Of a stretch of 64,000 bases of DNA, positions 6,625-53,220 are shown piece after piece. Source of the stretch: a virus. The stretch lies in UHGV virus genome UHGV-0218015, one strand, 5' to 3'. The first letter of the stretch is position 1; each line of letters opens with the position of its first letter. The position numbers and the translations under genes are program-made. The notes beneath the pieces are model-generated. The model was not told where the DNA came from and ran no database searches. It was given only the letters and a program-made list of their open reading frames with translations.

Positions 6625-8808
6625 ATGCAGAGATTTAACATATTTCGTGATCAGAACATCACGTTGGCGAAATCGCTGATTATTAAATCAGAATCAATCG
6701 CACAACAGATGAATCTGGCAATAACCGAGAACGGCGGTTTCGTTTCCGATAACCGTAGTACGTGGCGATACTACCTGCATTTAGCAGGACAACGTCACGA
6801 AATGGATAAACCCATTTACATAACGTCGCTCGACACGCAAGAGCAGATAGAATTAACGACAGCCAACCTGTCCCGTCATAAAAAGACCTCTAACGTTTTT
6901 CGTTCGAATGCTGAGTACATCGAGGCGTTGATCGCAAGTTATCCCGAATACGCGATTTATATTCGCGGCGTCTTTACGCCAATCGATTTAAAATACGCTT
7001 TACGTGTAGACGATTGTTCTATTTTGTATTACGACAGCTCGTTAGTAGAATCGCAAGAGACGTCATTGATTAGCCGACTGGAAGCGAGAATTCGTGCGGC
7101 ACATGTCCGTTACATGGCTGAGGGTTGGAAGGTCCACAACGATGCGTTTGTGTTAGCTTTCTATTGCATGTTGTTTCCTCAGTTACCAGGCATAATTGGT
7201 TATATACGTTCTTCTTTACAGCATACGACAGAAACGCACTCTTTCTTCGTTACCGAATTTTTAGCTTCGCATCAGGAACTGCATGAGTTTATGCCGTATC
7301 TGACTCAGAAACAAAAATTCATTCTTTATCGGAATATCCGATACTGGGAACGCAATTCAGGGAAAGAGGAGATCTTCGATTGGCAAATCGATGCGCTATT
7401 GACAGGTTGGGGAATGCCTGCGGTTGGGTATAATGTTGCACAGCAGATTCACGAACCGAAAGATAACGATGATAATTCCTTAACACCGTTACCTATCGGC
7501 TATCAGCAATCTTTAAACTACACAGAGAAAGACTCTGGACGCGATTTGGATATTGTTGCCACTACGGACATAATCCAAAAAGAGGTGGGGTTAGCGTATA
7601 ATAACCCGGCGTACGAACCGGAGTATCAAGAAGACTTAGACACCCGACTGAGTCTGACACAATACCCCAACTTAACGACGAAACTCGTAGAAGTCACCGC
7701 TGTTGACCCAGAAGCTATTGAGCGTTTTGAATACACACATAACCTCTTTAATGAATGGGTGCATTTGGTCGCGAAGGGAAAATACAGCATCTACCACGAG
7801 ATTCTTAACCCGACCAACGGCGACACGTTAAAAATGAGTTCGAAAGAGCTGTTGGCGTTGTTTTTGTACGCGGCGTATAAAGGCTACTCTGATGTCGCTC
7901 TTGAAGAAATCCCGGTATTTAACGTTTTTGATGTTTTGATTAAACGATGGGTTTCGTTCGATGAAATGGAACAACATCTTATCCCGAGTTGGGAACACCG
8001 TTTCGACGCACTGATTAACTACTACACCGATACCCACACCGAGGTAGTCGGAACCATTCTCAGTGCCGATGAACTTTACGATACGGTTAATGAAATTATT
8101 TTGCAGAAGCGCCGTCGTTGGCGTTACAGCCAAAACCGCCGTAAAATTCCCGACCGTGCAGCGGGCCTAATGTTGTTCGATTACCATTATCGCGATTACC
8201 GATGTGATTTAAAGTTAAAGTATCGTAACTACGATGAGTTCTTTAAGACCTTCGGTTTAGACTACACACTGGTCTCCGCAGAGACGTGGCAAGATATCGC
8301 AACTGATGCATTGAACACCGCAACAAACCTCGAAACGCGTGCAACTATTTCGCAATCTGAAATACAGCGTGCGATGGTTCGATTGATGACCAAGCTTTCG
8401 TCGTATACCGTACATTTTGCTGCGCGGATGGGGTCAGATTCTTACGACGTTATGGACCCGCTTTGTCCAATCTTAGGGGATATCCCTATGAGTGGGGAGG
8501 GTACAGTTACCATCATTGAACCTCTCTTAGGCGTACAGTCAGTTACGCGACATCAACACATGACGACGGACAAAGTGCTTCCCGCAGCGCCGGTGATTAA
8601 AGAGCTGTCCATGCCGCAACACATCAAACTACGGATGAACATTTACATGGGTATCCGTGTGAGAGTGAATCAGCAAGTCGTGGTGAATATTAATGAACCG
8701 ACCACCGGGGTTGTTAAGGTCAAGTCTTCACTTGACGACTGGGCGTTAAGCGAACAGGTGAAAATTAACGATCTCGAAGGGTTTACGTTAGACCAGCTAC
8801 CTAAGTGA
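6625..8808 (+). CDS. hypothetical protein (about 727 aa; ORF track start 6613 is TTG, ATG at 6625 preferred)
   Basis: Long ORF; ATG 6625 preceded by GGGG at 6615-6618; start lies within 12 nt of the divergent 905-aa gene start. Confidence 0.55.
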   Translation: MQRFNIFRDQNITLAKSLIIKSESIAQQMNLAITENGGFVSDNRSTWRYYLHLAGQRHEMDKPIYITSLDTQEQIELTTANLSRHKKTSNVFRSNAEYIEALIASYPEYAIYIRGVFTPIDLKYALRVDDCSILYYDSSLVESQETSLISRLEARIRAAHVRYMAEGWKVHNDAFVLAFYCMLFPQLPGIIGYIRSSLQHTTETHSFFVTEFLASHQELHEFMPYLTQKQKFILYRNIRYWERNSGKEEIFDWQIDALLTGWGMPAVGYNVAQQIHEPKDNDDNSLTPLPIGYQQSLNYTEKDSGRDLDIVATTDIIQKEVGLAYNNPAYEPEYQEDLDTRLSLTQYPNLTTKLVEVTAVDPEAIERFEYTHNLFNEWVHLVAKGKYSIYHEILNPTNGDTLKMSSKELLALFLYAAYKGYSDVALEEIPVFNVFDVLIKRWVSFDEMEQHLIPSWEHRFDALINYYTDTHTEVVGTILSADELYDTVNEIILQKRRRWRYSQNRRKIPDRAAGLMLFDYHYRDYRCDLKLKYRNYDEFFKTFGLDYTLVSAETWQDIATDALNTATNLETRATISQSEIQRAMVRLMTKLSSYTVHFAARMGSDSYDVMDPLCPILGDIPMSGEGTVTIIEPLLGVQSVTRHQHMTTDKVLPAAPVIKELSMPQHIKLRMNIYMGIRVRVNQQVVVNINEPTTGVVKVKSSLDDWALSEQVKINDLEGFTLDQLPK

Positions 8809-10223: not shown

Positions 10224-10867
10224 TGTTGATACCCGAGCCGAGACTTCCAGATAAGATGGTAAGAATCGCGGCAATAGACCCCGGTACGAGCCATCTTGGT
10301 ATGGCAGTATTGGATTGGGAATACGGCAGCGATCAAGCCGAAGTGGTTTGGGCTGATACCATGCATGTATTAGACCCAACGCATCCAAATGCGTTCGCAG
10401 AGTGTGTCGGTAAACGTGACGATCGTTTAGTTAAGCTCGAAGCTTGTTACCGTGAATTTCTTCGGATTGCCTGCCCAACTTTCGTTGCAACTGAGACACC
10501 GTTCATGCGGAGAGCAAAACTCTCCGCTTATGAATCTGGCGTCGAACTACAATTAATGTTGCGACGTACTTTGTGGGATATTTACCCGGAGAAAATTTTA
10601 CACGGCTTCAATCCTATCATTGTAAAATCATTCGTTGGGGTGGAGGCGAAGGGGACGGATAAAACCGATATGTTTCGGGCCGTGACCAAGCTCTACCATG
10701 ATCATGCTTTGTTTGATATTACAACGTTAGATGAGCACAGCATTGATGCTGTGGCGGTGGGAAATATTTTCGTCAGGGTAAATCTGTTAAACTTAAACAG
10801 CTTGCTACCGCCTAAACAAAAGTCGACTAAGACCTCCAGGCGGAGAAGGCGTCGGAGAAAACGTTAA
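10223..10867 (+). CDS. putative RuvC-like Holliday junction resolvase (RNase H fold) with poly-Arg C-terminus
   Basis: RIAAIDPGTSHLGMAV matches the RuvC N-terminal catalytic Asp motif (IDPG); internal ATE and C-terminal DEHSIDAVAVG motifs; tail SRRRRRRRKR. Confidence 0.5.
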   Translation: MLIPEPRLPDKMVRIAAIDPGTSHLGMAVLDWEYGSDQAEVVWADTMHVLDPTHPNAFAECVGKRDDRLVKLEACYREFLRIACPTFVATETPFMRRAKLSAYESGVELQLMLRRTLWDIYPEKILHGFNPIIVKSFVGVEAKGTDKTDMFRAVTKLYHDHALFDITTLDEHSIDAVAVGNIFVRVNLLNLNSLLPPKQKSTKTSRRRRRRRKR

Positions 10868-11445
10868 TGGAACCAAGCACACAAGCACTACCCACTGAAA
10901 TACTTGACTTGCTGATTCAAGCTGGAAACAAAAAGTTAAGTAAAGAACAATCTGAACAGTTAACGAAACTCTTGAAAGCGGCGTATGGGGATGAAGTCGA
11001 TGTTGACGTTACCCGTTCGGGAACAAAGATTCTTTCCGACTTACGACCGACGTTAATTGATAATTTAGGCAAACTATCAGAACAATTCCATCAGCAGGCA
11101 ACTGATGCTGTGGAATCTCTCGGGGATGAGGTTAGTAAAGAAACCATGCTAACCTTATGGCCGAAATTAGCCGCTTCCCAGAAGTTCATTATTGCCATTC
11201 TGACGTTGGCGACGGTTATTGTAACGGGGTTCCTGGGTTACGACACACATCAGCATTTTCCAGAAGACAGTCTAGATGTTCTGATTGTGACGTTGGTACC
11301 GTTCTTTGCATTGGTTGTTTTTGCGACTTGGCCGATTAAAACGTTGGCTTATAAGTCTCTTGAGATAGCCACAAAAGTTGTTGAGAAGAAGCTTGAGAAA
11401 TCAGGCCAGCTTAAGTCGAAGACAGAAAGCCCAACAACGAAATAA
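10867..11445 (+). CDS. putative membrane protein (192 aa)
   Basis: Two hydrophobic segments (FIIAILTLATVIVTGFLGY, LIVTLVPFFALVVFATW). Confidence 0.5.
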   Translation: MEPSTQALPTEILDLLIQAGNKKLSKEQSEQLTKLLKAAYGDEVDVDVTRSGTKILSDLRPTLIDNLGKLSEQFHQQATDAVESLGDEVSKETMLTLWPKLAASQKFIIAILTLATVIVTGFLGYDTHQHFPEDSLDVLIVTLVPFFALVVFATWPIKTLAYKSLEIATKVVEKKLEKSGQLKSKTESPTTK

Positions 11446-27166: not shown

Positions 27167-27697
27167 GTGATAGCGCGACTTGTGAGTTGGTTTAAGCAAC
27201 GTCGTGCAAAGGCGGTCGAATGGCCGCCTATTACGCATGACGAGAAAGTGGCTCTTTTTTTGGGATATAACAAAGACTTGGGGAGATTAGGCGAGTTAAT
27301 GCACTTAACGGAACGCCAGGTTTTTGCTAAGATTTCGAGCACCGAGTTGCGTAAAGAAGTAATTCCCCACCTATCCTTTTTAGGGCAGGTTTATGCAAAG
27401 ACGACAGAGGAATTTTTATCAACCCAAGGTAGCGAACGGCCACATATTCGGTTTTCCGTCGTAGGTGAACCTGATACGGTAGGTGAAATCGATTTTAAGA
27501 TGCTGTATCGCAGAATAAAAGATGATGGGTTTATACATGTTAAACGATTATCAAAAACTTCTGTGGTGATTTATCATCGCGCTGATCAGGATTTGTTAGG
27601 GTGTGTTATAAGGCTAACAAATTTACATAGTTTTTACGTTGACTTACTTACAGAGTTTTATCCAGAACCTTGGTGTTTTATAGATGAAAATAAATGA
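27167..27697 (+). CDS. hypothetical protein (176 aa), GTG start
   Basis: GTG 2 nt after previous stop. Confidence 0.45.
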   Translation: MIARLVSWFKQRRAKAVEWPPITHDEKVALFLGYNKDLGRLGELMHLTERQVFAKISSTELRKEVIPHLSFLGQVYAKTTEEFLSTQGSERPHIRFSVVGEPDTVGEIDFKMLYRRIKDDGFIHVKRLSKTSVVIYHRADQDLLGCVIRLTNLHSFYVDLLTEFYPEPWCFIDENK

Positions 27698-27896
27698 CGG
27701 ATATATCATATCAGCAATTGTTTCGACTACACTGATTGTAGCGATGTTGATGTTCTACGTTAAGACGTCTGACGAATCACGTAGAGACTCCCTTTATCGT
27801 GAATGTATGTCAGACACTACTGTAGATAATCCACGTTACGCTGAATTAGTAATGGCGTGTACGGAATACGCTAATCGAATGGGAGGAGGGAAATGA
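27684..27896 (+). CDS. small single-pass membrane protein (70 aa), paralog of next gene
   Basis: TM segment IISAIVSTTLIVAMLMFYV; shares Y-x-x-C...A-C pattern with 27893..28090. Confidence 0.45.
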   Translation: MKINDGYIISAIVSTTLIVAMLMFYVKTSDESRRDSLYRECMSDTTVDNPRYAELVMACTEYANRMGGGK

Positions 27897-28090
27897 AAAT
27901 TTGGTTACCGATTCTAGTATTTATCCTTATCGCAGGGGCACTCGCAAGTGCTGAGTTAGACAACCGTACTTTAGAAACGAAACGTGAGTTGTATCAGGAC
28001 TGTATAAAGGATTATACTCCAGGTACAGAGCTTCATGCACAGGCTGTAAGAAGCTGTGCGTTGATGGCTGAAACGCAGACTCGTTCCTAA
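27893..28090 (+). CDS. small single-pass membrane protein (65 aa), paralog of previous gene
   Basis: TM segment IWLPILVFILIAGALASA; YQDCIKD...SCALMAE parallels YRECMSD...ACTEYA. Confidence 0.45.
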   Translation: MKIWLPILVFILIAGALASAELDNRTLETKRELYQDCIKDYTPGTELHAQAVRSCALMAETQTRS

Positions 28091-28464: not shown

Positions 28465-28490
28465 TTTGATATTTAGCTGTAAAATGACTG

Positions 28491-28538
28491 TCTACCGCCC
28501 GATTCTATGGGCGGTAGATGTTTTTTATTTTTTTTTGA
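28491..28538 (+). terminator. rho-independent terminator
   Basis: Stem TCTACCGCCC / GATTCTAT / GGGCGGTAGA followed by TGTTTTTTATTTTTTTTT. Confidence 0.8.
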
Positions 28539-28552
28539 TCTGGGAGGCTATA

Positions 28553-29113
28553 GTGGCCACATACGTACCTGATTTAAGTCTGTCCTCAGCCGAATTGGTG
28601 GTCGCTTTAATCAACCACGATAACGGTTCACGGTTGTCTCTAAGCGAAATTCGTATTAGCAACACTATGGCAAACCTGTCCCCGACTACGTCGCGTCGTA
28701 ACACACTGACAGAGATTACAAAAATCAGGAAACCTGATGGTGCTTCTGTAGTTGTTTATTACGACCGCTTGGATGCGGACAAAGTGTTAGCGTCCGAACC
28801 TATTTTGATTTCGTTAGATGGTACCGAAGACAACCTTCGTGACATTTTAGGTGTTGTAAATGAATTCTGCGGAACGAACTTACAACCCGAGGATTTACAT
28901 GCTTCAGATATCACTTTAGGTAACGATCCTATTGCTGTCAACGTTGCTGACGATTCTCCAGCGTGGGTGAATGCGTTTATGGTGACGTTATTTGATAAAA
29001 CTGAACGGGCATTAGCAAACGAAGAAGATGCAATCTTCTGTATTGGTGACGATGCTGTTCTTACATTTGAGGTTCCAGATGGAGACTCCGCTGAAGAAAA
29101 CCCGGCTACATGA
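28553..29113 (+). CDS. tail-fibre-associated accessory protein (about 186 aa; GTG start after GGGAGG), paralog of 35204..35716
   Basis: VATYVPDLSLSSAELVVALINHDNG...VVYYDRL parallels MEKFTPDLSLTSLNMVISLVNHD...QIYYNRL; sits directly upstream of the fibre gene. Confidence 0.5.
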   Translation: MATYVPDLSLSSAELVVALINHDNGSRLSLSEIRISNTMANLSPTTSRRNTLTEITKIRKPDGASVVVYYDRLDADKVLASEPILISLDGTEDNLRDILGVVNEFCGTNLQPEDLHASDITLGNDPIAVNVADDSPAWVNAFMVTLFDKTERALANEEDAIFCIGDDAVLTFEVPDGDSAEENPAT

Positions 29114-42872: not shown

Positions 42873-43649
42873 ATGAAAACTATCGAGTTTAAGAATAGTA
42901 GTCTTTGGGCATACACGCACATCATTACGAGTTTCCTGAAAAACGTTACTCCACATCTTGCTTATCAGATTTATGGGAATGAGCTCACTATCGGTGGTTT
43001 TAACGAGGATGAATTAAAACGAGCAAAAGAGTTCATTGACGATGTTCTTCGTGGTGAAGCAACGTGTTTAGTTGCATGTTACGTTGCTAAAGACAAAGGA
43101 AGATTAAACGTCATGGCAATTTTCAGATCGTTCTCCGAAAAAGTATACGAAGTTGAGAAGATTAGTCATACCGTTTATATTGTTTACTTTAAACGTTCGG
43201 CGGAGAAAAACGCTGATAAAATTCTGGAGTATTTCGACTGTAACCCGGGGGAAGGTATGGATGTCTATACGCTCGGTTACGATGGGGTACCTCACCGGAA
43301 TAACCTTATTCGCATTGACGAACCTTTTTCAGTCAATGACGATTCCTCGCCTATAGAGATGGTTCTGGTACACAAAGATCGATTCGCGCATTACGATTCT
43401 GATACTATTCAACGTGTCCTGAACAACGTTAATATTCAGTTTTCACAAACCGAGCACTTAGTACGTGCATGTCTTAGGTCTAATGGCACAACATCATTTT
43501 TCTTCGAACGTCAAACTGTTTGGCATACTTATCTGGCTCTGATGGAAGAACTTGATAGGATCGAGCCAGTTCAGGTTGGTGCAAATTGCTTATATTGGAT
43601 AAAAACAAAAGGGTTCATGAATGAAAACGCTCAATTCAGATTTGCGTGA
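42873..43649 (+). CDS. hypothetical protein (258 aa)
   Basis: CCAAAAGGAAAATAAA-ATG RBS. Confidence 0.5.
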   Translation: MKTIEFKNSSLWAYTHIITSFLKNVTPHLAYQIYGNELTIGGFNEDELKRAKEFIDDVLRGEATCLVACYVAKDKGRLNVMAIFRSFSEKVYEVEKISHTVYIVYFKRSAEKNADKILEYFDCNPGEGMDVYTLGYDGVPHRNNLIRIDEPFSVNDDSSPIEMVLVHKDRFAHYDSDTIQRVLNNVNIQFSQTEHLVRACLRSNGTTSFFFERQTVWHTYLALMEELDRIEPVQVGANCLYWIKTKGFMNENAQFRFA

Positions 43650-44049
43650 TTACATCCGTCAGTACCCAGCCAGTATTCCTGTACTGGCGTCGCTTACGCT
43701 TTCAGGTACTGACGTTAACATCTTAACGGTGGAACAGTTCCACGAGATAATAAAAACCGCTTATAACTCCATTACCGCAACGTCAGTACGTAAACGTTGC
43801 GATTATCCCGACGGGGATTTCGGCACCGAGATGTTTACAGATTATGCGGTTGCGTTTCTGTTAGGGCGACACTGCCTCGATAAACTTAACACTGCTGTAG
43901 AAGGGGAAACAGTGACGGAAATAGTCAACGCTTGGCAGCAACGTATTCTGAGCGACGCTTACTGCCGACAGGCGTTAAAACGAATGTCCACAACGGCGAT
44001 TACAAACGACCAGCGTGCTTTAGAGTTCTTTAAGCACAATTACAGCTAA
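43621..44049 (+). CDS. hypothetical protein (142 aa), paralog of 44910..45341
   Basis: MKTLNSDLRDYIRQYPASIPVLASL parallels MFFVLNDEIRNYIRNNPIALGVLAGF. Confidence 0.5.
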   Translation: MKTLNSDLRDYIRQYPASIPVLASLTLSGTDVNILTVEQFHEIIKTAYNSITATSVRKRCDYPDGDFGTEMFTDYAVAFLLGRHCLDKLNTAVEGETVTEIVNAWQQRILSDAYCRQALKRMSTTAITNDQRALEFFKHNYS

Positions 44050-44909: not shown

Positions 44910-45341
44910 ATGTTTTTCGTATTAAATGATGAAATCCGTAACTACATTCGTAACAATCCGATTGCTTTGGGCGTTCTAGCAGGTTTCTGTCGTCCAAATA
45001 CTGACTTCGATTTAGTTAAGTTAGAAGAATATCAGGAAATTGTGAATACTAACTACATGCACATCTGTAGCTGGGGTAAACGTCCTCGCGAAGAGTACCC
45101 TGTAGGTGAGTTAGGTGACACTATGCATCGTGACCAGAATCTGATGCACGAATTCGTTGAATACACACTGGAAAATCTTAACTATCCGCTTCTTGTCGAC
45201 ACTGTACCAGAAATGGTTGACGAATGGTTAAGTCGTGTTTACAATGACCCTACTGCCAACAAGTTACTGAGTCAGATGTCACAAACTTCTCGTGACATCG
45301 ACACTCGTACGCTGATGTACTTAGCACACAACGTTCGCTAA
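44910..45341 (+). CDS. hypothetical protein (143 aa), paralog of 43621..44049
   Basis: CCTAAAGGAGTATTAAA-ATG; paralogous N-terminus. Confidence 0.5.
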   Translation: MFFVLNDEIRNYIRNNPIALGVLAGFCRPNTDFDLVKLEEYQEIVNTNYMHICSWGKRPREEYPVGELGDTMHRDQNLMHEFVEYTLENLNYPLLVDTVPEMVDEWLSRVYNDPTANKLLSQMSQTSRDIDTRTLMYLAHNVR

Positions 45342-45508: not shown

Positions 45509-46357
45509 ATGTCTCTTACGTCAAAACAGAAACTGCTAAAACTCATCAACACTGAAAACAATATTGTTCCGCCATTGACCTTCAGTGATGTTGATATCGG
45601 CGAACCTACTGGTACTGGGGTTGATACCCAGGTGGTTCTGACTTCTAAACTCAAAGGCGATGAGTCTACTACTTTAACGGTGACTTACCATCGTCGTAAT
45701 TTGCCCGAATACCTAACAGGTGAGTTGGTATTCGGTAACGACGGTGTTGTAACCGCCTCAGATTTGCTTAACGCAATCAACGCAAAATACGATTTAAATA
45801 TTCTGCCATCGGATATCGTTGATGCGAAAGTTGAAGGTAAAACCCACCAACTTACCGCTAACGAGAAATCTTACGAGTGGTGTGGCGAAGTGACGCTTAC
45901 GCTACGCGATCCTATTGATCTGGCTAAATTGCTACCTGTTACTCAATTAGAAAACCTGGTAGAGTATCCGTCCACTAAGAAAGGTAACGCTGCGGTTTAT
46001 TCTTACCCAATTGACTTCACCGCAGAAAAAGATTACCTTGATCCAATTACCATCAACGGCACCGTAGACTTAGTAGAGTTAGCTACTAAACTGACTAACG
46101 TTGTTGATGAGAAATGGGTAAGCGTACCTAAGAACGCTGCTAATAACTTGTTCGGTGCTAAGGTTATCTACGATGGCCCTACCGCAGGTTTCGAAGGCGC
46201 AAATGCGAAGTACACGCGTGTGCTGGTACTCGCCCTAAGCGGTATGTGTTCTAACCTGACCGGTAAACTGTTAATTCACTTTAACGGAACCGATCGTCCG
46301 AAGTCGAAGATTGAATTAGCCAAGACTAATTCGGTCTTACCGGGATTCTTAGATTAA
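45509..46357 (+). CDS. member 1 of a four-gene paralog family (282 aa), unknown function, possibly virion-associated
   Basis: N-terminus SKQKLLKLINTEN...LTFSDVDIGEPTG parallels 46371, 49515 and 50113 products. Confidence 0.55.
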   Translation: MSLTSKQKLLKLINTENNIVPPLTFSDVDIGEPTGTGVDTQVVLTSKLKGDESTTLTVTYHRRNLPEYLTGELVFGNDGVVTASDLLNAINAKYDLNILPSDIVDAKVEGKTHQLTANEKSYEWCGEVTLTLRDPIDLAKLLPVTQLENLVEYPSTKKGNAAVYSYPIDFTAEKDYLDPITINGTVDLVELATKLTNVVDEKWVSVPKNAANNLFGAKVIYDGPTAGFEGANAKYTRVLVLALSGMCSNLTGKLLIHFNGTDRPKSKIELAKTNSVLPGFLD

Positions 46358-46370
46358 GAGGATTACAGTA

Positions 46371-46847
46371 ATGACCAGTCAAGAAACTATTTTCGACCTT
46401 ATTAAAAAGGCTAACCCAGACGCCGAGCTCGACACCGCCAAAGTCACATTGGGTGAGCCCGTCGTAAGTACCGGTACGTACAACACCGAAATTACGGTTG
46501 TGCCGGTTAAAAATCTCGGTTATGTTAATAAGCAAACGTTCCAGTATAACCGCATTGATGCAGGTTTGTATTTCCTCAACGTATTGCCGAAACTGTTAGT
46601 TGAGACAGCAACCACGACTGCGGACCTGCTGCCTGTAATTAACGAGCAGTATGGCTTAACCCTTACCGAAGACGATGTGTGGGTAGAGCAGGTTGGTGCG
46701 TTGCCGCTAGACGGCAGTGCAATCGAGCACGGTATTTTCTTCCGCCCCGAGTGTCTAACCTGGGTCGGTGGTTTTACAGTGCGTGTTGCGCGTAAACCGT
46801 CTGTCGAGACACCGCCAGCTAAGCCATCGCGCGCTAAGAAGAAATAA
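46371..46847 (+). CDS. member 2 of paralog family (158 aa)
   Basis: TIFDLIKKANPDAELDTAKVTLGEPVV parallels family N-termini; GAGGATTACAGTA-ATG. Confidence 0.55.
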   Translation: MTSQETIFDLIKKANPDAELDTAKVTLGEPVVSTGTYNTEITVVPVKNLGYVNKQTFQYNRIDAGLYFLNVLPKLLVETATTTADLLPVINEQYGLTLTEDDVWVEQVGALPLDGSAIEHGIFFRPECLTWVGGFTVRVARKPSVETPPAKPSRAKKK

Positions 46848-46852
46848 CTACA

Positions 46853-46886
46853 GGGTGGGGTAATCCCACCCTCTTTTCTTTTTTTG
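46853..46886 (+). terminator. rho-independent terminator
   Basis: Stem GGGTGGG / GTAA / TCCCACCC followed by TCTTTTCTTTTTTT. Confidence 0.8.
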
Positions 46887-46909: not shown

Positions 46910-47500
46910 ATGGCCGAACGTTGGACTAAAGAAGGTATTATTGAATCAAAAACAGATTTAGAGGGTGGGTACGTCAATGACCCTGACGATAAAGGTGGGG
47001 AAACCTGTCACGGGGTAACACTGACAACTGCACGCGAATACGGGTACAAAGGAAGAATGAAAGATCTGACCCGTGCGCAAGCGTTTGATATTTACGATCG
47101 TGGTTGGTGGAAGAAACTTAAACTCGATGAGATTTTCGCTATCTCGCCGATACTCGCCGACAGGATGTTTGATTTTGGTATTAACTCTGGTCGTGTTAAC
47201 TGTGTGAAATCGTTACAACGTATTCTCAACGTTTTAAATAACGAAGGGAAACTTTACGCAGATATTGACACCGATGGTGGTATGGGACCTAAAACACTAG
47301 GTGCTCTGAATGCTTATCTGAATTACCGTAAAGGCGAGGGATTAGGCATCTTAATCTTTGCGTTAATCTCACATCAGGTAACCTACTACACGGAAATCTC
47401 CGAAAAGCGTAAGAAGAATGAAAAATTCGCTTACGGCTGGTACGGACGCGTGTACAGGGAAATGCCGGATTATGTAGTGAAGGCGGGGTTAGTAAAATGA
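46910..47500 (+). CDS. endolysin, glycoside hydrolase family 108 (lysozyme-like) with C-terminal peptidoglycan-binding domain
   Basis: LEGGYVNDPDDKGGETCHGVT matches the GH108 catalytic-site signature; AGAGGAGTTAAAGAAA-ATG RBS. Confidence 0.8.
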   Translation: MAERWTKEGIIESKTDLEGGYVNDPDDKGGETCHGVTLTTAREYGYKGRMKDLTRAQAFDIYDRGWWKKLKLDEIFAISPILADRMFDFGINSGRVNCVKSLQRILNVLNNEGKLYADIDTDGGMGPKTLGALNAYLNYRKGEGLGILIFALISHQVTYYTEISEKRKKNEKFAYGWYGRVYREMPDYVVKAGLVK

Positions 47501-47601
47501 ATTGGTTTGCTAAACTCTTAGCACTATTGTGGAAAGCGTTAACGTCTGGACGGAAACGTAAAGACGAAAAGCGTGGGTACGAATTTTTCTGGTTTCTATA
47601 A
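47497..47601 (+). CDS. small hydrophobic peptide (34 aa), candidate lysis accessory (holin-like or spanin-like) protein; not in ORF track
   Basis: ATG overlaps endolysin stop (ATGA); MNWFAKLLALLWKALTSGRKRKDEKRGYEFFWFL, amphipathic N-terminus and basic C-terminus. Confidence 0.3.
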   Translation: MNWFAKLLALLWKALTSGRKRKDEKRGYEFFWFL

Positions 47602-47616
47602 GGGAAGGTGTGGGTA

Positions 47617-48282
47617 ATGGAGAAGCTTCAATATAAACGTTTAGACAATAAGTGGTTTGTATTAACGGAGGATTACCATTATCCGTTTACGTTACGCGAG
47701 ATTTATCACGACCACGTACACTTAGACCGTGCGGTTTATTTAACGGGTGTATTGCCTGACACGCAACTGTGGTTAACAGCACCGAAAGGGTTCGTTACCG
47801 ATTTAGCGTCAATTCCTGATCACCTCCAGGGAATTTTCCATCCTGACGGACCGTGGGCACCTGCGGCCTGTATTCACGACTTACTCTATCAAAAATGCAA
47901 CACGGAGCGTAGCTATCCCATGACACCGGGTGGTAACGTTTCGCGTTTCATCGATAAAGAGTTCTCTGACTTAACTTTCCTGCGTATTATGCAGTCGTTG
48001 GAAATCTCGCCTTATATCTGCCAAACATTTTATAAGGCCGTTGTTGAATTCGGCTGGGATGCCTACGTAGATCCTAATGCAAAGCCATCCTACAGCACTA
48101 ACGCGTTTCGTACGTTAGATTACAATCGAAACTATTTATTCGTTCGCGAGTTTAAGGAACCTGCAATCCCTGACCACGAACGTATTGATATCACCACAGA
48201 TTGTCCCGTTAATGTCAAATACCTGAACATCAAACGGGCTTTTCTGTCTGGGAGGGAAGATGTTTCATCCAAATCCGAGTAA
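47617..48282 (+). CDS. hypothetical protein (about 221 aa; ATG 47617 preferred over track start 47608)
   Basis: AGGGAAGG RBS before ATG 47617. Confidence 0.5.
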   Translation: MEKLQYKRLDNKWFVLTEDYHYPFTLREIYHDHVHLDRAVYLTGVLPDTQLWLTAPKGFVTDLASIPDHLQGIFHPDGPWAPAACIHDLLYQKCNTERSYPMTPGGNVSRFIDKEFSDLTFLRIMQSLEISPYICQTFYKAVVEFGWDAYVDPNAKPSYSTNAFRTLDYNRNYLFVREFKEPAIPDHERIDITTDCPVNVKYLNIKRAFLSGREDVSSKSE

Positions 48283-48775
48283 CTTTAAACTCAGAGAGTT
48301 AGTACCACAGTCCTATATTGCCAAATACGGCGATTCCGCAATTCGGTTTATGAATCCGTTGTTAATGATCTCCCTACAACAGATTCGTAATCGTTTCGGC
48401 AGAATGGTGATTAACTCAACTGCCGCACAACAGCGCGGACTAAGAACCTTAGATTTCTTTATTAATCAAGAAAAGCCTAAGGGTGGTAGTTATAAACAAC
48501 GTGCGTTGCAGCTTTACGCCGATTCAGGAAGTCAACACAAATTCGGTAACGCCATTGATGCAACGTTGTTGGATAGCACCGTAAAACAGGTTCACGACTA
48601 TATCGCTGCTAACCCTGACGAGTTTCCGTTCATTCACTTTATTGAATGTGACATCAGTTGGTTGCACATTGACGTTCGTAACCAGCCTAACATTACTTTC
48701 TGGTCACCAAATCGTGGTACTGTGAAAGTTGTTAAGCAAAAACCAATCGATTGGAGCGCCTTAGTCGAGATTTAA
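48260..48775 (+). CDS. putative peptidase M15-family cell-wall hydrolase (171 aa)
   Basis: SQHKFGNAIDA (H-x-x-G-x-A-x-D zinc-binding motif) and downstream WLHID histidine typical of M15 peptidases. Confidence 0.5.
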   Translation: MFHPNPSNFKLRELVPQSYIAKYGDSAIRFMNPLLMISLQQIRNRFGRMVINSTAAQQRGLRTLDFFINQEKPKGGSYKQRALQLYADSGSQHKFGNAIDATLLDSTVKQVHDYIAANPDEFPFIHFIECDISWLHIDVRNQPNITFWSPNRGTVKVVKQKPIDWSALVEI

Positions 48776-48860
48776 CTATTTCTAAGGTGTTTATACCTTA
48801 TTTTGTATAAAGACGCTCAGAATGCGTTTTACGCACGATTTGGCGGTTAAAATGAATATA

Positions 48861-48895
48861 CCCTACTCCCGATAAGGAGTAGGGTAGTTTTTATT
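48861..48895. terminator. terminator hairpin between convergent genes
   Basis: Stem CCCTACTCC / CGATAA / GGAGTAGGG followed by TAGTTTTTATT. Confidence 0.7.
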
Positions 48896-49382
48896 GTTCC
48901 GCAGGATGGAGCATTGTTCCAGTGTCAGACGCTACACCTTCTTTACAGTGGAAGAAAGTAATGCCTTTACCATCACCCGTTTTATATTCTAAAGTAGAAT
49001 ACGCAAACGTTGGCGTTTTTGAAAGTAAGCCATTTACACGATAGTAACGTTGTCCTGTGATAGGATCAATATTCCCATTAACTTTACCTAATAAATCTTT
49101 ATAAAGTTGCGGCGACTCAATCTTGCCGTTTGGCCAAGTGGCTACCCAGTTAGCACCAGTATCGAGTACAGTTACTGACCCTAGCATTATATTAGTCGAG
49201 CTGACGACAGGTTTGTAATTTGCAAAATCTTGCTCTGCACCCATACAGGTGTAAATAACCATATCATGTGGCTCCACCGGCACAGTCGAGAATTGGCCGT
49301 TACCATTCGGTTGTAAGGCACATCCTGCCAATGAAAAAACACCAACCATAACGATAAGAAAACGTTTTATCATACTCTTCAC
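48891..49382 (-). CDS. lipoprotein (163 aa), isolated - strand gene in a + strand region (moron-like)
   Basis: Signal peptide plus lipobox: MKSMIKRFLIVMVGVFSLAG-C; own upstream intergenic region (49383-49514) and downstream terminator. Confidence 0.7.
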   Translation of the reverse strand: MKSMIKRFLIVMVGVFSLAGCALQPNGNGQFSTVPVEPHDMVIYTCMGAEQDFANYKPVVSSTNIMLGSVTVLDTGANWVATWPNGKIESPQLYKDLLGKVNGNIDPITGQRYYRVNGLLSKTPTFAYSTLEYKTGDGKGITFFHCKEGVASDTGTMLHPAEQ

Positions 49383-49514: not shown

Positions 49515-50045
49515 ATGGCTAAAACTTTTCAACAGCAGCTTATCGAACTTATTAACACTAAAAACAGCTCTCTGAGCTCCGCTCTCACCGTAGCTGATGT
49601 TGACTTTAGTGCTGTCGCTGACTTCACCGGAGAAGCTGGCCGCAACACTAAAATTACTCTGACCGCCAAGGCAGAAAGCCAGAACTTCAAAGGCGAGAAA
49701 GAATTCCACTATACTCGTCTTTCCTGCGACATCGTTGGTGAAGTTGAAGTAACTGCACCTACTACCGATTTCGATTCACCAACGAAAATCCTGGCAAAAG
49801 TTAACGCAGCCATGGCTGAGAAAGGGTACACCGATGACGAGTTCGGTGAAAACGACCTGCAAACTATTTCCCGTGAAGAAGAAGGCAAAACCATTTACGT
49901 AGTAACTGTTGTGGCTGGACACCTGAAGTTCCTGCCAGGTACTGTTGCAACGTATAAAGTTACTCCTCCGGCTATTGAGAAAGTAGTATTGAACGGTTTG
50001 GAAGGTGAACTGGATGGCTTCACCGCACCAGCGCCTAAAGAGTAA
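49515..50045 (+). CDS. member 3 of paralog family (176 aa)
   Basis: FQQQLIELINTKNSSLSSALTVADVDF...NTKITLTAKAESQNFKGEKEFHYTRL parallels 50113 product. Confidence 0.55.
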   Translation: MAKTFQQQLIELINTKNSSLSSALTVADVDFSAVADFTGEAGRNTKITLTAKAESQNFKGEKEFHYTRLSCDIVGEVEVTAPTTDFDSPTKILAKVNAAMAEKGYTDDEFGENDLQTISREEEGKTIYVVTVVAGHLKFLPGTVATYKVTPPAIEKVVLNGLEGELDGFTAPAPKE

Positions 50046-50112: not shown

Positions 50113-50643
50113 ATGGCAGCTACTAACCAGATGATGTTAGTTGCGCTTTATAATGCTGCTAACACAGAGCTACCGCATCAGGTCACTGATAAAGAGGTAA
50201 CTTTTGGTCAACCTGTCGCTCTTGAAAAGGGCGATAAAAATACCAAAGTTACCATGACCGCACGTACAGAGTCTGAAAATTTTAAAGGCGCAATCGAACT
50301 GCATTACGATCGTCTGGAACCTGGCGTTATCGGACGCATTGAGGTAACGGACGATTTGGCTCTCTGGACTGGAGAAAACGAACTACGCGACCGATTACAG
50401 TTCTACATCAATAAAGTAAAACCTGACGACTCTATCGCGCCTGGTGACGTTGAGTACACCACCGAAGACCAGAAAGACGAACACGATAGCGTCACTCTGC
50501 GTACGGTAACTTGTACCGTTACTGAAAAGAACCTCCGTTATAAACCGGGTGTAATGGCAACTTTCGTAATTACGCCGAAAGTTGTTGATAATCGTATTGA
50601 CCTGGCCACCACCGACGGTGAACTTGACGGCTTTACTGCTTAA
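50113..50643 (+). CDS. member 4 of paralog family (176 aa)
   Basis: NQMMLVALYNAANTELPHQVTDKEVTF...NTKVTMTARTESENFKGAIELHYDRL. Confidence 0.55.
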   Translation: MAATNQMMLVALYNAANTELPHQVTDKEVTFGQPVALEKGDKNTKVTMTARTESENFKGAIELHYDRLEPGVIGRIEVTDDLALWTGENELRDRLQFYINKVKPDDSIAPGDVEYTTEDQKDEHDSVTLRTVTCTVTEKNLRYKPGVMATFVITPKVVDNRIDLATTDGELDGFTA

Positions 50644-51387: not shown

Positions 51388-51935
51388 TCATCTTCTCCTT
51401 TAACTAAACCTAGCTCAATTAACAATTCAAAATCGATTTGGCGAAATTTGTTATCAAAACCAGAATCCCAATCGATGTGTAATCCTTGTCGTTCTTCATC
51501 GGTAAGTTCAGGATAAATTAAATCATGGAACGCTTCACGTTCCTCGTAAAATCCATCGATAGTAGAATCTGGATTCCGCATTGCGTAAATCGTGATGCCC
51601 GGAAAGGATAATCCTAATGCTGTTATAGATTCGACGCTTGGTTCTTGCAAGGCCCTGCGTAATAGCACGATTTTATGTCGTGGAAAATCTAGTACACGTT
51701 GTTCAAACCCAGGATTCCGTTTCTCAATTTCTGTAACTGAAAGATCGGTGAGTTCTGTGCAATACATTGGGATAACTACAGTTACTCCGTGGCGAATTAA
51801 TAATCGTTTAACATCGTCAGTGAAGTCTTCACCATTAATTTGCACATAACAACCAAACAATTTTGTAGTTTCTAAAAATTTTTCCAGAAAACGGAATTTA
51901 CGCTTCGTAATATTGTGGATCAGAATTGGCTTCAT
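51363..51935 (-). CDS. hypothetical protein (190 aa) in rSAM/Cys-rich operon
   Basis: - strand ORF overlapping the SPASM rSAM gene end by 38 nt. Confidence 0.5.
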   Translation of the reverse strand: MKPILIHNITKRKFRFLEKFLETTKLFGCYVQINGEDFTDDVKRLLIRHGVTVVIPMYCTELTDLSVTEIEKRNPGFEQRVLDFPRHKIVLLRRALQEPSVESITALGLSFPGITIYAMRNPDSTIDGFYEEREAFHDLIYPELTDEERQGLHIDWDSGFDNKFRQIDFELLIELGLVKGEDECLLLTKA

Positions 51936-53220
51936 CTTTGGTTTCTCTCAATTGTTTTTCTTTCTGGGTACGTTCACGTACGCAACGAGGGCAATAACAC
52001 ATGCTATTGTCATGAAAATCTTTCACTGACGTCGTGCCCATTTTCTGTTTCCAATATTCCGCAACCATCAACTTTGCAGTTGTCCAGCCGCATTGACGGC
52101 GTTCAGCGTGATAAGCTTTGCGATCTTCTAGCGTCCCTTCTCCATTCTCGTAAGATGCAGCCGCACAACTACCACAAGCGTGCTTCATTGGACAACCTAA
52201 ACAGGTTTCAGGATAGTTGGTGTATTGCGTCTGAATCTCTTCCAGCAATTTCCCGTCATCTAAGCTAACGAATTCCCGGCCAACTAATTCAAATACGGCA
52301 GAACGTGATGTTACGGTTGACATGAAACGGTTACAACCGAAGATCTTACGATCAAATCCTAAGCAGGTCATGTGTGTTAACGTACCGCAGAACGGGCGTA
52401 AACGTTCTGGATTCAAACGTACAGTATCGTTATACAATAACTGATCACGCCAGTTTGGTTCCCAGATAGTATCAAAATCTAACCCGTCTGGAATGATGTG
52501 CGACAAAGTGTTACGTGGGTTGGTGTGTAAGCCCTTCTCAACCCAATAATCAACCACGTCCATCATCTGCAATGCGATTGAAGTAGCCATGCTCCGTGGC
52601 ATAATGTCTTCGAAGGTTACGTTGCCAGAAATAGTTCCGCCGCCAGTAATATCAATTAATGATTTCATTCCAGCAGCATAGAACGGTAACGTTTCCAACG
52701 TAAAGGTCGCTTTTACACCAAGTTCTGCAATACCGACTTCTTTTAAGTAGTTATAGCCCCGCACAGCGGCCTCGTAAGATCCTTCACGAGTTGTTGTAAA
52801 AATCCGGTACTTATCGTGCGATTCGGGCAATCCATCAATAGACACGCCGATAGAAAGCCTGTCTTTCCAACGTTCAATAATTTCTCTATTCAAAGGTCTA
52901 TCTAACAACGTTCCGTTAGTAGAGATGCTAAACATAAACGGCCGATTATGTTTTTCGCATAACTCTTCTGCGGTTTCAAATGCCGCCTTTAATAGTTTAG
53001 GCTGCATAAACGGCTCACCACCGATGATATCGATAACGACCTCGATGTTTGTCAGATCTTTATCTCGTTCAAAACAAGCGTGTAGAAAATCAACAATATC
53101 CGCCGCTTTGTTATTACGGGGATACTTACGTTCGTAACAATACTCACAGTCCAAGTTACACGATAAATTTGTAACAATTTGATAAGTCAGTTGTTTTGGA
53201 TAACTATTTTCTTGACTCAT
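51898..53220 (-). CDS. radical SAM enzyme with C-terminal SPASM-like auxiliary Cys cluster domain (440 aa), putative peptide-modifying maturase
   Basis: N-terminal CNLDCEYC (C-x3-C-x2-C), GGEP SAM-binding motif, C-terminal CGTLTHMTC...GC and CLGCPMKHACGSC (C-x2-C-x5-C-x2-C) clusters. Confidence 0.8.
   Translation of the reverse strand: MSQENSYPKQLTYQIVTNLSCNLDCEYCYERKYPRNNKAADIVDFLHACFERDKDLTNIEVVIDIIGGEPFMQPKLLKAAFETAEELCEKHNRPFMFSISTNGTLLDRPLNREIIERWKDRLSIGVSIDGLPESHDKYRIFTTTREGSYEAAVRGYNYLKEVGIAELGVKATFTLETLPFYAAGMKSLIDITGGGTISGNVTFEDIMPRSMATSIALQMMDVVDYWVEKGLHTNPRNTLSHIIPDGLDFDTIWEPNWRDQLLYNDTVRLNPERLRPFCGTLTHMTCLGFDRKIFGCNRFMSTVTSRSAVFELVGREFVSLDDGKLLEEIQTQYTNYPETCLGCPMKHACGSCAAASYENGEGTLEDRKAYHAERRQCGWTTAKLMVAEYWKQKMGTTSVKDFHDNSMCYCPRCVRERTQKEKQLRETKDEANSDPQYYEA

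Follow-up and report, generated by a model that had tools for sequence, protein, structure and literature searches.

Why would a nucleus-forming jumbo phage encode two different peptidoglycan hydrolases within a single short gene cluster, and at which end of infection are they used? The question is raised by positions 46910 to 48775 of a 64,000-nucleotide (nt) stretch of the virus genome UHGV-0218015 (hereafter the window). Protein and DNA comparison identify the window as part of a nucleus-forming jumbo phage related to Salmonella phage SPN3US (genus Seoulvirus, phiKZ-like), and on sequence grounds we assign it to the SPN3US-like, Chimalliviridae-type jumbo phages. A first-pass annotation had described the locus as a lysis region containing a GH108 muramidase, a tiny membrane open reading frame (ORF) of 34 residues, a 221-residue unknown protein, and an M15 metallopeptidase. 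All four ORFs are present where it placed them, and these four plus-strand genes form a translationally coupled cassette between terminator hairpins. The lysis label itself holds in part: the GH108 protein is a likely endolysin, while the SPN3US ortholog of the 221-residue protein, a member of the DUF1353 family, is listed as a virion head protein, so the locus is not simply a lysis cassette. We propose, with about even confidence, that it is an envelope-active four-gene cassette deployed at both ends of infection and not a canonical holin-endolysin-spanin cassette.

According to this proposal, the TtsA-type GH108 muramidase would cut glycan strands, the M15 zinc peptidase would cut peptide stems, and the DUF1353 protein, a phospholipase A2 (PLA2)-like enzyme, would attack phospholipids. 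The 34-residue cationic amphipathic peptide would bind membranes, most likely helping the GH108 protein to reach or destabilise them, and the muramidase would be released late through a holin encoded elsewhere. The PLA2-like protein probably accompanies the DNA into the next host, where it would act on lipid of the inner membrane, and it may act again at lysis. Its delivery at entry is probable because its SPN3US ortholog, gp157, is packaged in the head at few copies and is absent when the particles contain no ejection proteins or no virion RNA polymerase (vRNAP).

A predicted phospholipase encoded beside a likely endolysin

The 221-residue protein, which had been left as an unknown, belongs to the DUF1353 family (Pfam PF07087; 1.8e-14, 53.6 bits against a cut-off of 22.5; Pfam matches of this protein and of the GH108 protein were accepted on the gathering score). 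PF07087 is found in every one of the 112 homologs, out of 115, that have a precomputed domain. Residues H87, D88, and D118 are invariant among 37 diverse sequences, non-phage bacterial ones included. In a predicted model of the protein, the helical core is present and the best match is PLA2; from model and alignment together, the protein appears to have a group XIII/XIV-type PLA2-like core and is probably a phospholipase. In the jumbo phages, about 45 N-terminal and about 70 C-terminal residues extend beyond this core.

The one characterised DUF1353 member is TtaP, a 125-residue protein of the typhoid-toxin islet, which has PLA2 activity in lysates that is lost in a D85A mutant and which HHpred tied to the PLA2s 1LWB and 4AUP (PMC11525133). 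The islet resembles the cassette in several respects. It brings together the same families, GH108 with PG_binding_3 (TtsA) and DUF1353 (TtaP); the phage DUF1353 proteins have a His-Asp...Asp motif that runs in the order of the TtaP catalytic residues; neither TtsA and TtaP nor their phage counterparts have a secretion signal; and both islet and cassette would need perturbation of the outer membrane. They differ in that the islet genes are transcribed separately (pltB/pltA/ttsA and cdtB-ttaP) and work in the export of toxin from cells that do not lyse, and in that the phage protein, with 221 residues against 125, has added N- and C-terminal modules and an insertion of about 15 residues between the presumed catalytic His and Asp. 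Unlike the secreted PLA2s (TbSP1 of Tuber borchii, 4AUP; the Streptomyces violaceoruber enzyme, 1LWB), the phage protein has no signal peptide or propeptide. TtaP reportedly does not conserve the cysteines that form disulfides in those enzymes (PMC11525133), and sequence-profile search alone does not connect the secreted families with DUF1353. None of the indexed papers mentioning DUF1353 ties the gene to TtaP and its PLA2 activity, or to the proteomics of SPN3US virions.

The database label of the DUF1353 gene is "tail assembly chaperone", acquired by way of PHROG 1158 and repeated in many GenBank records. Accordingly, the protein could be a non-enzymatic chaperone of tail or fibre assembly, with the lysins merely interleaved with morphogenesis genes, and the genomic surroundings are consistent with such a role: small phages often have DUF1353 beside tail-fibre or J-type genes (the neighbours in 21 small-phage clusters are a mixture of tail-fibre/J genes and lysis genes), and the flanks of the cassette encode DUF7941 virion proteins. 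We nevertheless consider a chaperone highly improbable. No experiments that support the label were found, the characterised member TtaP is an enzyme, the invariance of the His-Asp...Asp residues in 37 sequences is as expected of an active site, and PLA2 is the best match of the model; moreover, gp157 is listed in the virion head, whereas chaperones are normally unpackaged. A "structural protein" label attached to the DUF1353 gene of phage Arash was discounted, as its virion preparation also held many replication enzymes.

Virion data on the SPN3US orthologs

Proteomic data for SPN3US, whose gene numbers we verified by mass (gp157, 24.5 kDa; gp158, 19.9 kDa; gp160, 18.5 kDa), bear on where these proteins act. 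The 86 proteins of CsCl-purified SPN3US include gp157 (Ali et al. 2017), detected with 4 unique peptides and 9 spectra at 100% protein probability and labelled "Head"; its spectral count over mass (SC/M) of 0.37 is comparable to that of the vRNAP subunit gp244. The same study lists it as undetected in particles from the ejection-protein mutant 47(am1) and from the vRNAP mutants 218(am101) and 244(am84) (Ali et al. 2017). The GH108 ortholog, gp156, has no row among those readable in the virion tables, and a search of the same tables for gp159 found no row. Detection of the M15 ortholog, gp158, is at trace level and inconsistent: in the mutant comparison table, one preparation has 0 spectra and the other two have 4-7, and a 2016 study reported 2-3 spectra in tailed particles and none in tailless ones, which its authors considered probably non-specific.

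Several points weigh against a cassette that acts at both ends. The gp157 signal is weak, and its absence from the three mutants could be stochastic non-detection of a scarce protein. The equation of H87, D88, and D118 with H70, D71, and D85 of TtaP is tentative, drawn as it is from shared Pfam membership and motif order, and an HMMER profile of DUF1353 searched against the PDB found no PLA2, just Notch ankyrin noise. The sequence analysis itself shows gene structure, families and folds, synteny, conservation, and selection; the enzymatic activity of the cassette proteins, its timing, and its site are what we infer. Among phage records, DUF1353 has no match in phiKZ and a weak one in PhiPA3 (E 4e-4), and its function is therefore probably outside the chimallivirus core. 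Finally, of 80 bacterial and 65 small-phage DUF1353 loci, none has GH108 or this type of M15 inside a distance of 5 kb; with the association absent from these 145 loci, a general linkage of GH108 or M15 to DUF1353 was rejected.

If the virion detection of gp157 were adventitious, the locus could be a pure lysis cassette whose four products all act only at the end, the GH108 and M15 enzymes after a holin and the PLA2-like enzyme and the peptide by destabilising the outer membrane, as mycobacteriophage LysB or the phiKT disruptin does. Trace amounts of gp158 and of gp100, which is known to be non-structural, also occur in some virion preparations, and the TtsA-dependent release of toxin requires that bile salts or cationic peptides perturb the outer membrane, an effect that TtaP was proposed to supply. 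However, deletion of ttaP gave no secretion phenotype, and gp157 combines its Head label with a 100% protein probability while gp156, from the same cluster, was not found in the virion tables searched. Together with the points on either side given below, we judge a pure lysis cassette somewhat unlikely, and prefer deployment at entry as well as at lysis.

[quoted passage not shown] We regard this as unlikely.

Two peptidoglycan hydrolases

Both hydrolase assignments of the first-pass annotation are borne out. The GH108 protein has a Glyco_hydro_108 domain at residues 17-94 (3.7e-23, 82.3 bits against a cut-off of 21.2) and a C-terminal PG_binding_3 domain at residues 98-180 (5.2e-16, 59 bits against 24.6). 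It matches PHROG 315 ("endolysin", 6e-43) and aligns over its full length to PDB 6V3Z (6e-44) and 6V40 (9e-44). Its N-terminal EGGY motif, which in the GH108 family presumably carries the catalytic Glu, is LEGGYVNDPDDKGG in the window and aligns with REGGYVDHPDDRGG of TtsA. A hydropathy scan found no signal peptide, transmembrane domain (TMD), or hydrophobic N-terminus. Because the protein is predicted to be soluble and has no export signal, because its ortholog has no row in the virion tables, and because the family is typical of phage release, it is likely to be a soluble cytoplasmic endolysin. Of the two structures, 6V40 is TtsA of S. Typhi and 6V3Z is Sen1395 of S. Enteritidis (PMC6996933).

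The 171-residue M15 protein is more divergent. Searched against Pfam, it matched no family at E<=1, missing all M15 models, and the PDB search returned an irrelevant Vasa helicase (E 0.64); a family alignment and a fold search were therefore needed. In the alignment, the M15 zinc-ligand pattern H-x6-D plus distal His (H93, D100, and H136) is invariant in 28 sequences, likewise D138, R62, and E129, and the fold search returned a Hedgehog/DD-peptidase fold. Among the 28 relatives, 18 match PF08291 and 14 match PF13539, so that M15 membership of the window protein, as predicted, rests on transitivity and fold. The protein shares its fold and its H-x6-D...H pattern with M15 (LAS) enzymes such as the Streptomyces albus DD-peptidase (1LBU), VanXYc, Ply500, and the T5 endolysin, and differs from them as a divergent subfamily whose N-terminal portion, some 90 residues long, is helical. 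Homologs about 34% identical are encoded in two viral contigs of about 245 kb (L012 and L015) and in 98 Vibrio phage records; by these matches, the subfamily is widespread outside the phiKZ-like phages. The window protein matches PHROG 894, also labelled "endolysin", and the PHROG labels of both hydrolase families are in keeping with a role at lysis alone. The M15 protein may be a second lysin that cuts another bond, or else an enzyme carried by the virion in low copy number.

A cationic micro-ORF under selection

The tiny membrane ORF of the first-pass annotation does overlap the GH108 stop codon, through a shared ATGA, and is a selected gene; its product is not membrane-spanning. Over the five closest contigs (L004-L008), the ORF read in its own frame has a ratio of nonsynonymous to synonymous polymorphism (pN/pS) of 0.09, compared with 0.86-0.90 when either other frame is read and with 0.06-0.08 in the genes on its two sides. 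A positional homolog, MKQNWFAALMKAIWRALVFAARRKRNDPPSNSA, occurs in SPN3US, where it also shares ATGA with the GH108 stop, and the best match of the peptide anywhere in the genome of Seoulvirus SPLA3 lies exactly after the GH108 stop. Because of the purifying selection and the SPN3US homolog at the same site, we take the ORF to be a real gene under purifying selection. A tblastn search of the peptide against all phage records gave no match; the homology to SPN3US is visible solely from reading the syntenic interval.

The peptide has a net charge of +5 and consists of an N-terminal amphipathic helix of 16-18 residues with the lysines on one face (hydrophobic moment of about 0.45 over residues 1-18), a RKRKDEKR stretch, and an aromatic tail. 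No 19-residue window reaches a Kyte-Doolittle value of 1.6, the threshold used for a transmembrane segment, and two Lys lie inside the 16-residue helix; its gene does adjoin that of the endolysin, as a holin gene might. The product thus resembles a membrane-active cationic peptide more closely than it does a holin.

These properties bear on the suggestion that the cassette works without a dedicated holin, the 34-residue ORF, or a pair of genes at 27684-28090, making the inner-membrane lesion that releases the endolysins. The ORF is directly coupled to the endolysin gene and is under selection, the same slot holds single-TMD ORFs in relatives (30-52 residues in SPN3US and L100-L105, 29 residues in L091), and the PHROG annotation of a Seoulvirus genome contains no holin label. 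The suggestion is nonetheless very doubtful, given a helix that has two lysines and no bilayer-spanning stretch, a distant gene pair with neither a family match nor a Seoulvirus homolog, and another, equally putative candidate elsewhere in the window, a conserved two-TMD protein. We therefore keep to a late release of the GH108 protein through a holin encoded outside the cassette as the preferred reading.

The slot between the GH108 and DUF1353 genes is occupied by a small hydrophobic or amphipathic ORF in all jumbo relatives, and these ORFs are not all homologous. Four phage contigs (L100-L103) have one ORF of 38-52 residues with a TMD at its end, and two others (L104 and L105) have a different type. 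In SPN3US, the interval at 136033-136323 (8034-8324 of our L001 record) has ORFs in two frames that jointly resemble the single 50-52-residue ORF of L100/L103 (PVPPVFPDVQ...DDDPP...TMD), which points to a small membrane gene that is split or frameshifted, or else to an error in sequencing or annotation.

The GH108 gene ends in GTA AAA TGA (47492-47500; A_AAA_TGA at 47494-47500), where a -1 slip of tRNA-Lys onto AAA is possible. Such a slip would allow fusion of the peptide to the endolysin as a C-terminal cationic amphipathic tail. The site is kept in L004-L008 and is not present in SPN3US (GCAAATGA).

A known counterpart of the peptide may be the disruptin gp28 of phage phiKT, which is likewise small, strongly cationic, and predicted to form an amphipathic helix, and whose gene also adjoins that of the endolysin. 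This likeness in size class, charge, and position is a further point in favour of a purely lytic cassette. The two differ in length and charge (56 residues and +7 in phiKT, 34 residues and +5 in the window) and no sequence similarity was found; furthermore, phiKT is without spanins, whereas a Seoulvirus relative of the window has a spanin-like pair. The 34-residue peptide is most likely a membrane-active accessory, perhaps disruptin-like or a helper of endolysin access.

Holin and spanin candidates

As regards the window, the first-pass annotation was right to see no canonical holin. A TMD and hydropathy scan found no holin-like gene inside the cassette, and in a PHROG-annotated Seoulvirus genome no gene is labelled holin or spanin. 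The first-pass annotation had also offered the pair at 27684-28090 as a possible membrane disruptor. The pair exists, as two overlapping plus-strand genes (27684-27896 and 27893-28090) for weak paralogs of 70 and 65 residues, each with one N-terminal TMD (type II) and a short two-cysteine C-terminal domain. It matches no family, has no homolog in Seoulvirus, and is not linked to lysis genes, lying 19 kb away among structural genes; we found nothing in support of the proposed role. The pair appears to be specific to the window clade.

A putative holin candidate is encoded at 10867-11445 (+). This protein of 192 residues has about 100 soluble N-terminal residues followed by two C-terminal TMDs; it belongs to PHROG 8722, with a weak match to a holin PHROG (E 0.01), and is conserved, being 49% identical to a Seoulvirus protein encoded beside a RuvC-like resolvase gene.

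Outside the region covered by the window, Seoulvirus SPLA3 (L083-L087) encodes a 169-residue protein with a TMD and a coiled coil (190375-190884), followed by a 159-residue lipoprotein with the lipobox LLTGC (190894-191373). These are plausibly a separated inner- and outer-membrane (i-/o-)spanin pair, and with such a pair at about 190 kb an alternative disruptor of the outer membrane is not obviously needed, which argues against the pure lysis cassette. SPLA3 also has an SLT transglycosylase at 185454-186176 with a signal- or signal-arrest-release (SAR)-like N-terminus. The 64-kb window itself contains no spanin pair; the regions of the SPLA3 spanin-like pair and SLT gene fall beyond its coverage.

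On the minus strand at 48891-49382, convergent to the cassette and sharing its bidirectional terminator, lies a gene for a predicted lipoprotein of 163 residues (lipobox LAGC, PHROG 9559) that is 48% identical to SPN3US gp159. We rejected it as an o-spanin on account of its length, its opposite strand, and the absence of an adjacent same-strand TMD partner. It could be involved in superinfection exclusion or receptor masking.

Conservation of the locus in jumbo phages

At the DNA level, the match of the window to Salmonella jumbo phages is limited to about 410 bp at 75% identity; at the protein level, the locus is collinear with SPN3US gp156-gp163. Identities to SPN3US are 62% for the GH108 protein, 58% for DUF1353, 78% for the 171-residue M15 protein, 48% for the lipoprotein, and 83% for a radical-SAM protein encoded downstream. 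Much closer are a 220.8-kb IMG/VR contig (L004), in which the GH108, 34-residue, and 171-residue proteins are identical to those of the window and DUF1353 is 99.5% identical, and four more contigs with 90-99% protein identity across the four cassette genes. The SPN3US gp156-gp159 region and the corresponding regions of Erwinia and Cronobacter jumbo phages have the same order as the window, namely GH108, small ORF(s), DUF1353, M15, and a convergent lipoprotein gene, with radical-SAM genes downstream. They differ in the interval between GH108 and DUF1353, which in SPN3US is 288 nt with two or three small ORFs and in the window clade 116 nt with the 34-residue ORF alone, and in the upstream flank, which is gp155 in SPN3US and two DUF7941 paralogs in the window.

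DUF1353 adjoins a peptidoglycan hydrolase gene in all jumbo relatives examined and is the constant element of the locus. GH108, DUF1353, and M15 occur together in the window clade and SPN3US; GH108 and DUF1353 occur without M15 in six phage contigs of 241-248 kb (L100-L105); and DUF1353 and M15, with the same gene overlap, occur without GH108 in CR5, Phobos, and EarlPhillipIV-like phages. Outside the jumbo phages, GH108 was near DUF1353 in two of three arbitrary metagenomic contexts. In one of these (L088/L089), genes for two 2-TMD proteins come first, then GH108, next a gene whose product combines a TMD with a lipobox, and last DUF1353 with a 4-nt overlap; such a position of DUF1353, straight after a holin-holin-GH108-spanin-like run, speaks for a pure lysis cassette. 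In L091, an unrelated metagenomic phage, an ORF of 29 residues with a TMD overlaps the GH108 stop, and a lipoprotein gene lies directly 5' of DUF1353. The presence of a small transmembrane protein within three genes was uninformative with the crude gene caller used (33/46 for M15, 14/21 for DUF1353, 63/90 for background) and was dropped.

Dozens of sequenced jumbo phages already have the locus, though with poor annotation, and both hydrolases are ordinary members of known families. What is new is the linkage of a PLA2-like phage gene to a muramidase of TtsA type, evidence that a nucleus-forming phage packages the PLA2-like protein in its head, and a cationic micro-ORF under selection. Recent reviews and the Goslar structure preprint state the entry of chimallivirus DNA into a lipid vesicle, its exit, and lysis as open questions, and no phage-encoded lipid-active enzyme appears in their accounts; a PLA2-like protein encoded beside an endolysin and found in the SPN3US head is a concrete candidate for these questions. 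Its assignment also corrects the widely propagated tail assembly chaperone annotation and gives TtaP a phage context. With its muramidase and peptidase, its putative lipase, and its cationic peptide, the cassette is also a possible set for the design of enzybiotics against Gram-negative bacteria.

Layout and flanks of the cassette

The features of the cassette and its limits are given in Table 1. The GH108 gene and the 34-residue ORF share their ATGA; a 15-nt gap that contains the ribosome-binding site GGAAGGTG separates the latter from the DUF1353 gene; and the DUF1353 and M15 genes overlap by 23 nt. We start the DUF1353 ORF at the ATG at 47617, the mechanical ORF opening earlier, at GTG 47608; its end is at 48282. 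A scan for sigma-70 promoters gave fewer sites than shuffled sequences and was discarded, since such phages transcribe with their own RNA polymerases.

Table 1. Features of the four-gene cassette and the hairpins that delimit it
Feature	Position	Strand	Basis and remarks
Intrinsic-terminator-like hairpin AGGGTGGGGTAATCCCACCCT, then T-run	46852..46872	+	Terminator scan and sequence reading; closes the upstream DUF7941 gene (5' limit of cassette)
GH108 muramidase with C-terminal PG_binding_3	46910..47500	+	SPN3US gp156 ortholog
34-residue cationic peptide gene MNWFAKLLALLWKALTSGRKRKDEKRGYEFFWFL	47497..47601	+	ATGA overlap with GH108 stop; pN/pS
DUF1353 protein, 221 residues, predicted PLA2-like core	47617..48282	+	SPN3US gp157 ortholog
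Predicted M15 (LAS-fold) zinc peptidase, 171 residues	48260..48775	+	SPN3US gp158 ortholog
Bidirectional terminator-like hairpin, 11-12 bp stem	48859..48886	both	Terminator scan; gap between M15 and convergent lipoprotein genes (3' limit of cassette)

At least five DUF7941 paralogs are encoded around the cassette (45509-46357, 46371-46847, 49515-50045, 50113-50643, and 28466-29113). In SPN3US proteomics, these genes correspond to "paralog family B", abundant head proteins and possible ejection proteins, whereas a 2026 Goslar preprint proposes that DUF7941 proteins are micron-long filaments anchored at the baseplate; the two placements conflict.

Just 5' of the DUF7941 block, two plus-strand genes (43621-44049 and 44910-45341) encode likely paralogs of 142 and 143 residues around a 253-residue acidic protein. 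The N-termini of both read ...L(N/ND)(D/E)(L/I)R(D/N)YIR..P... and the C-termini ...HNY(S)/HNVR.

The radical-SAM/SPASM-type gene that is 83% identical to its SPN3US counterpart lies on the minus strand at 51898-53220, neighboured by DUF4376-like and other small genes, and in Seoulvirus a second radical-SAM gene follows the first. This region may be a module for peptide or protein modification.

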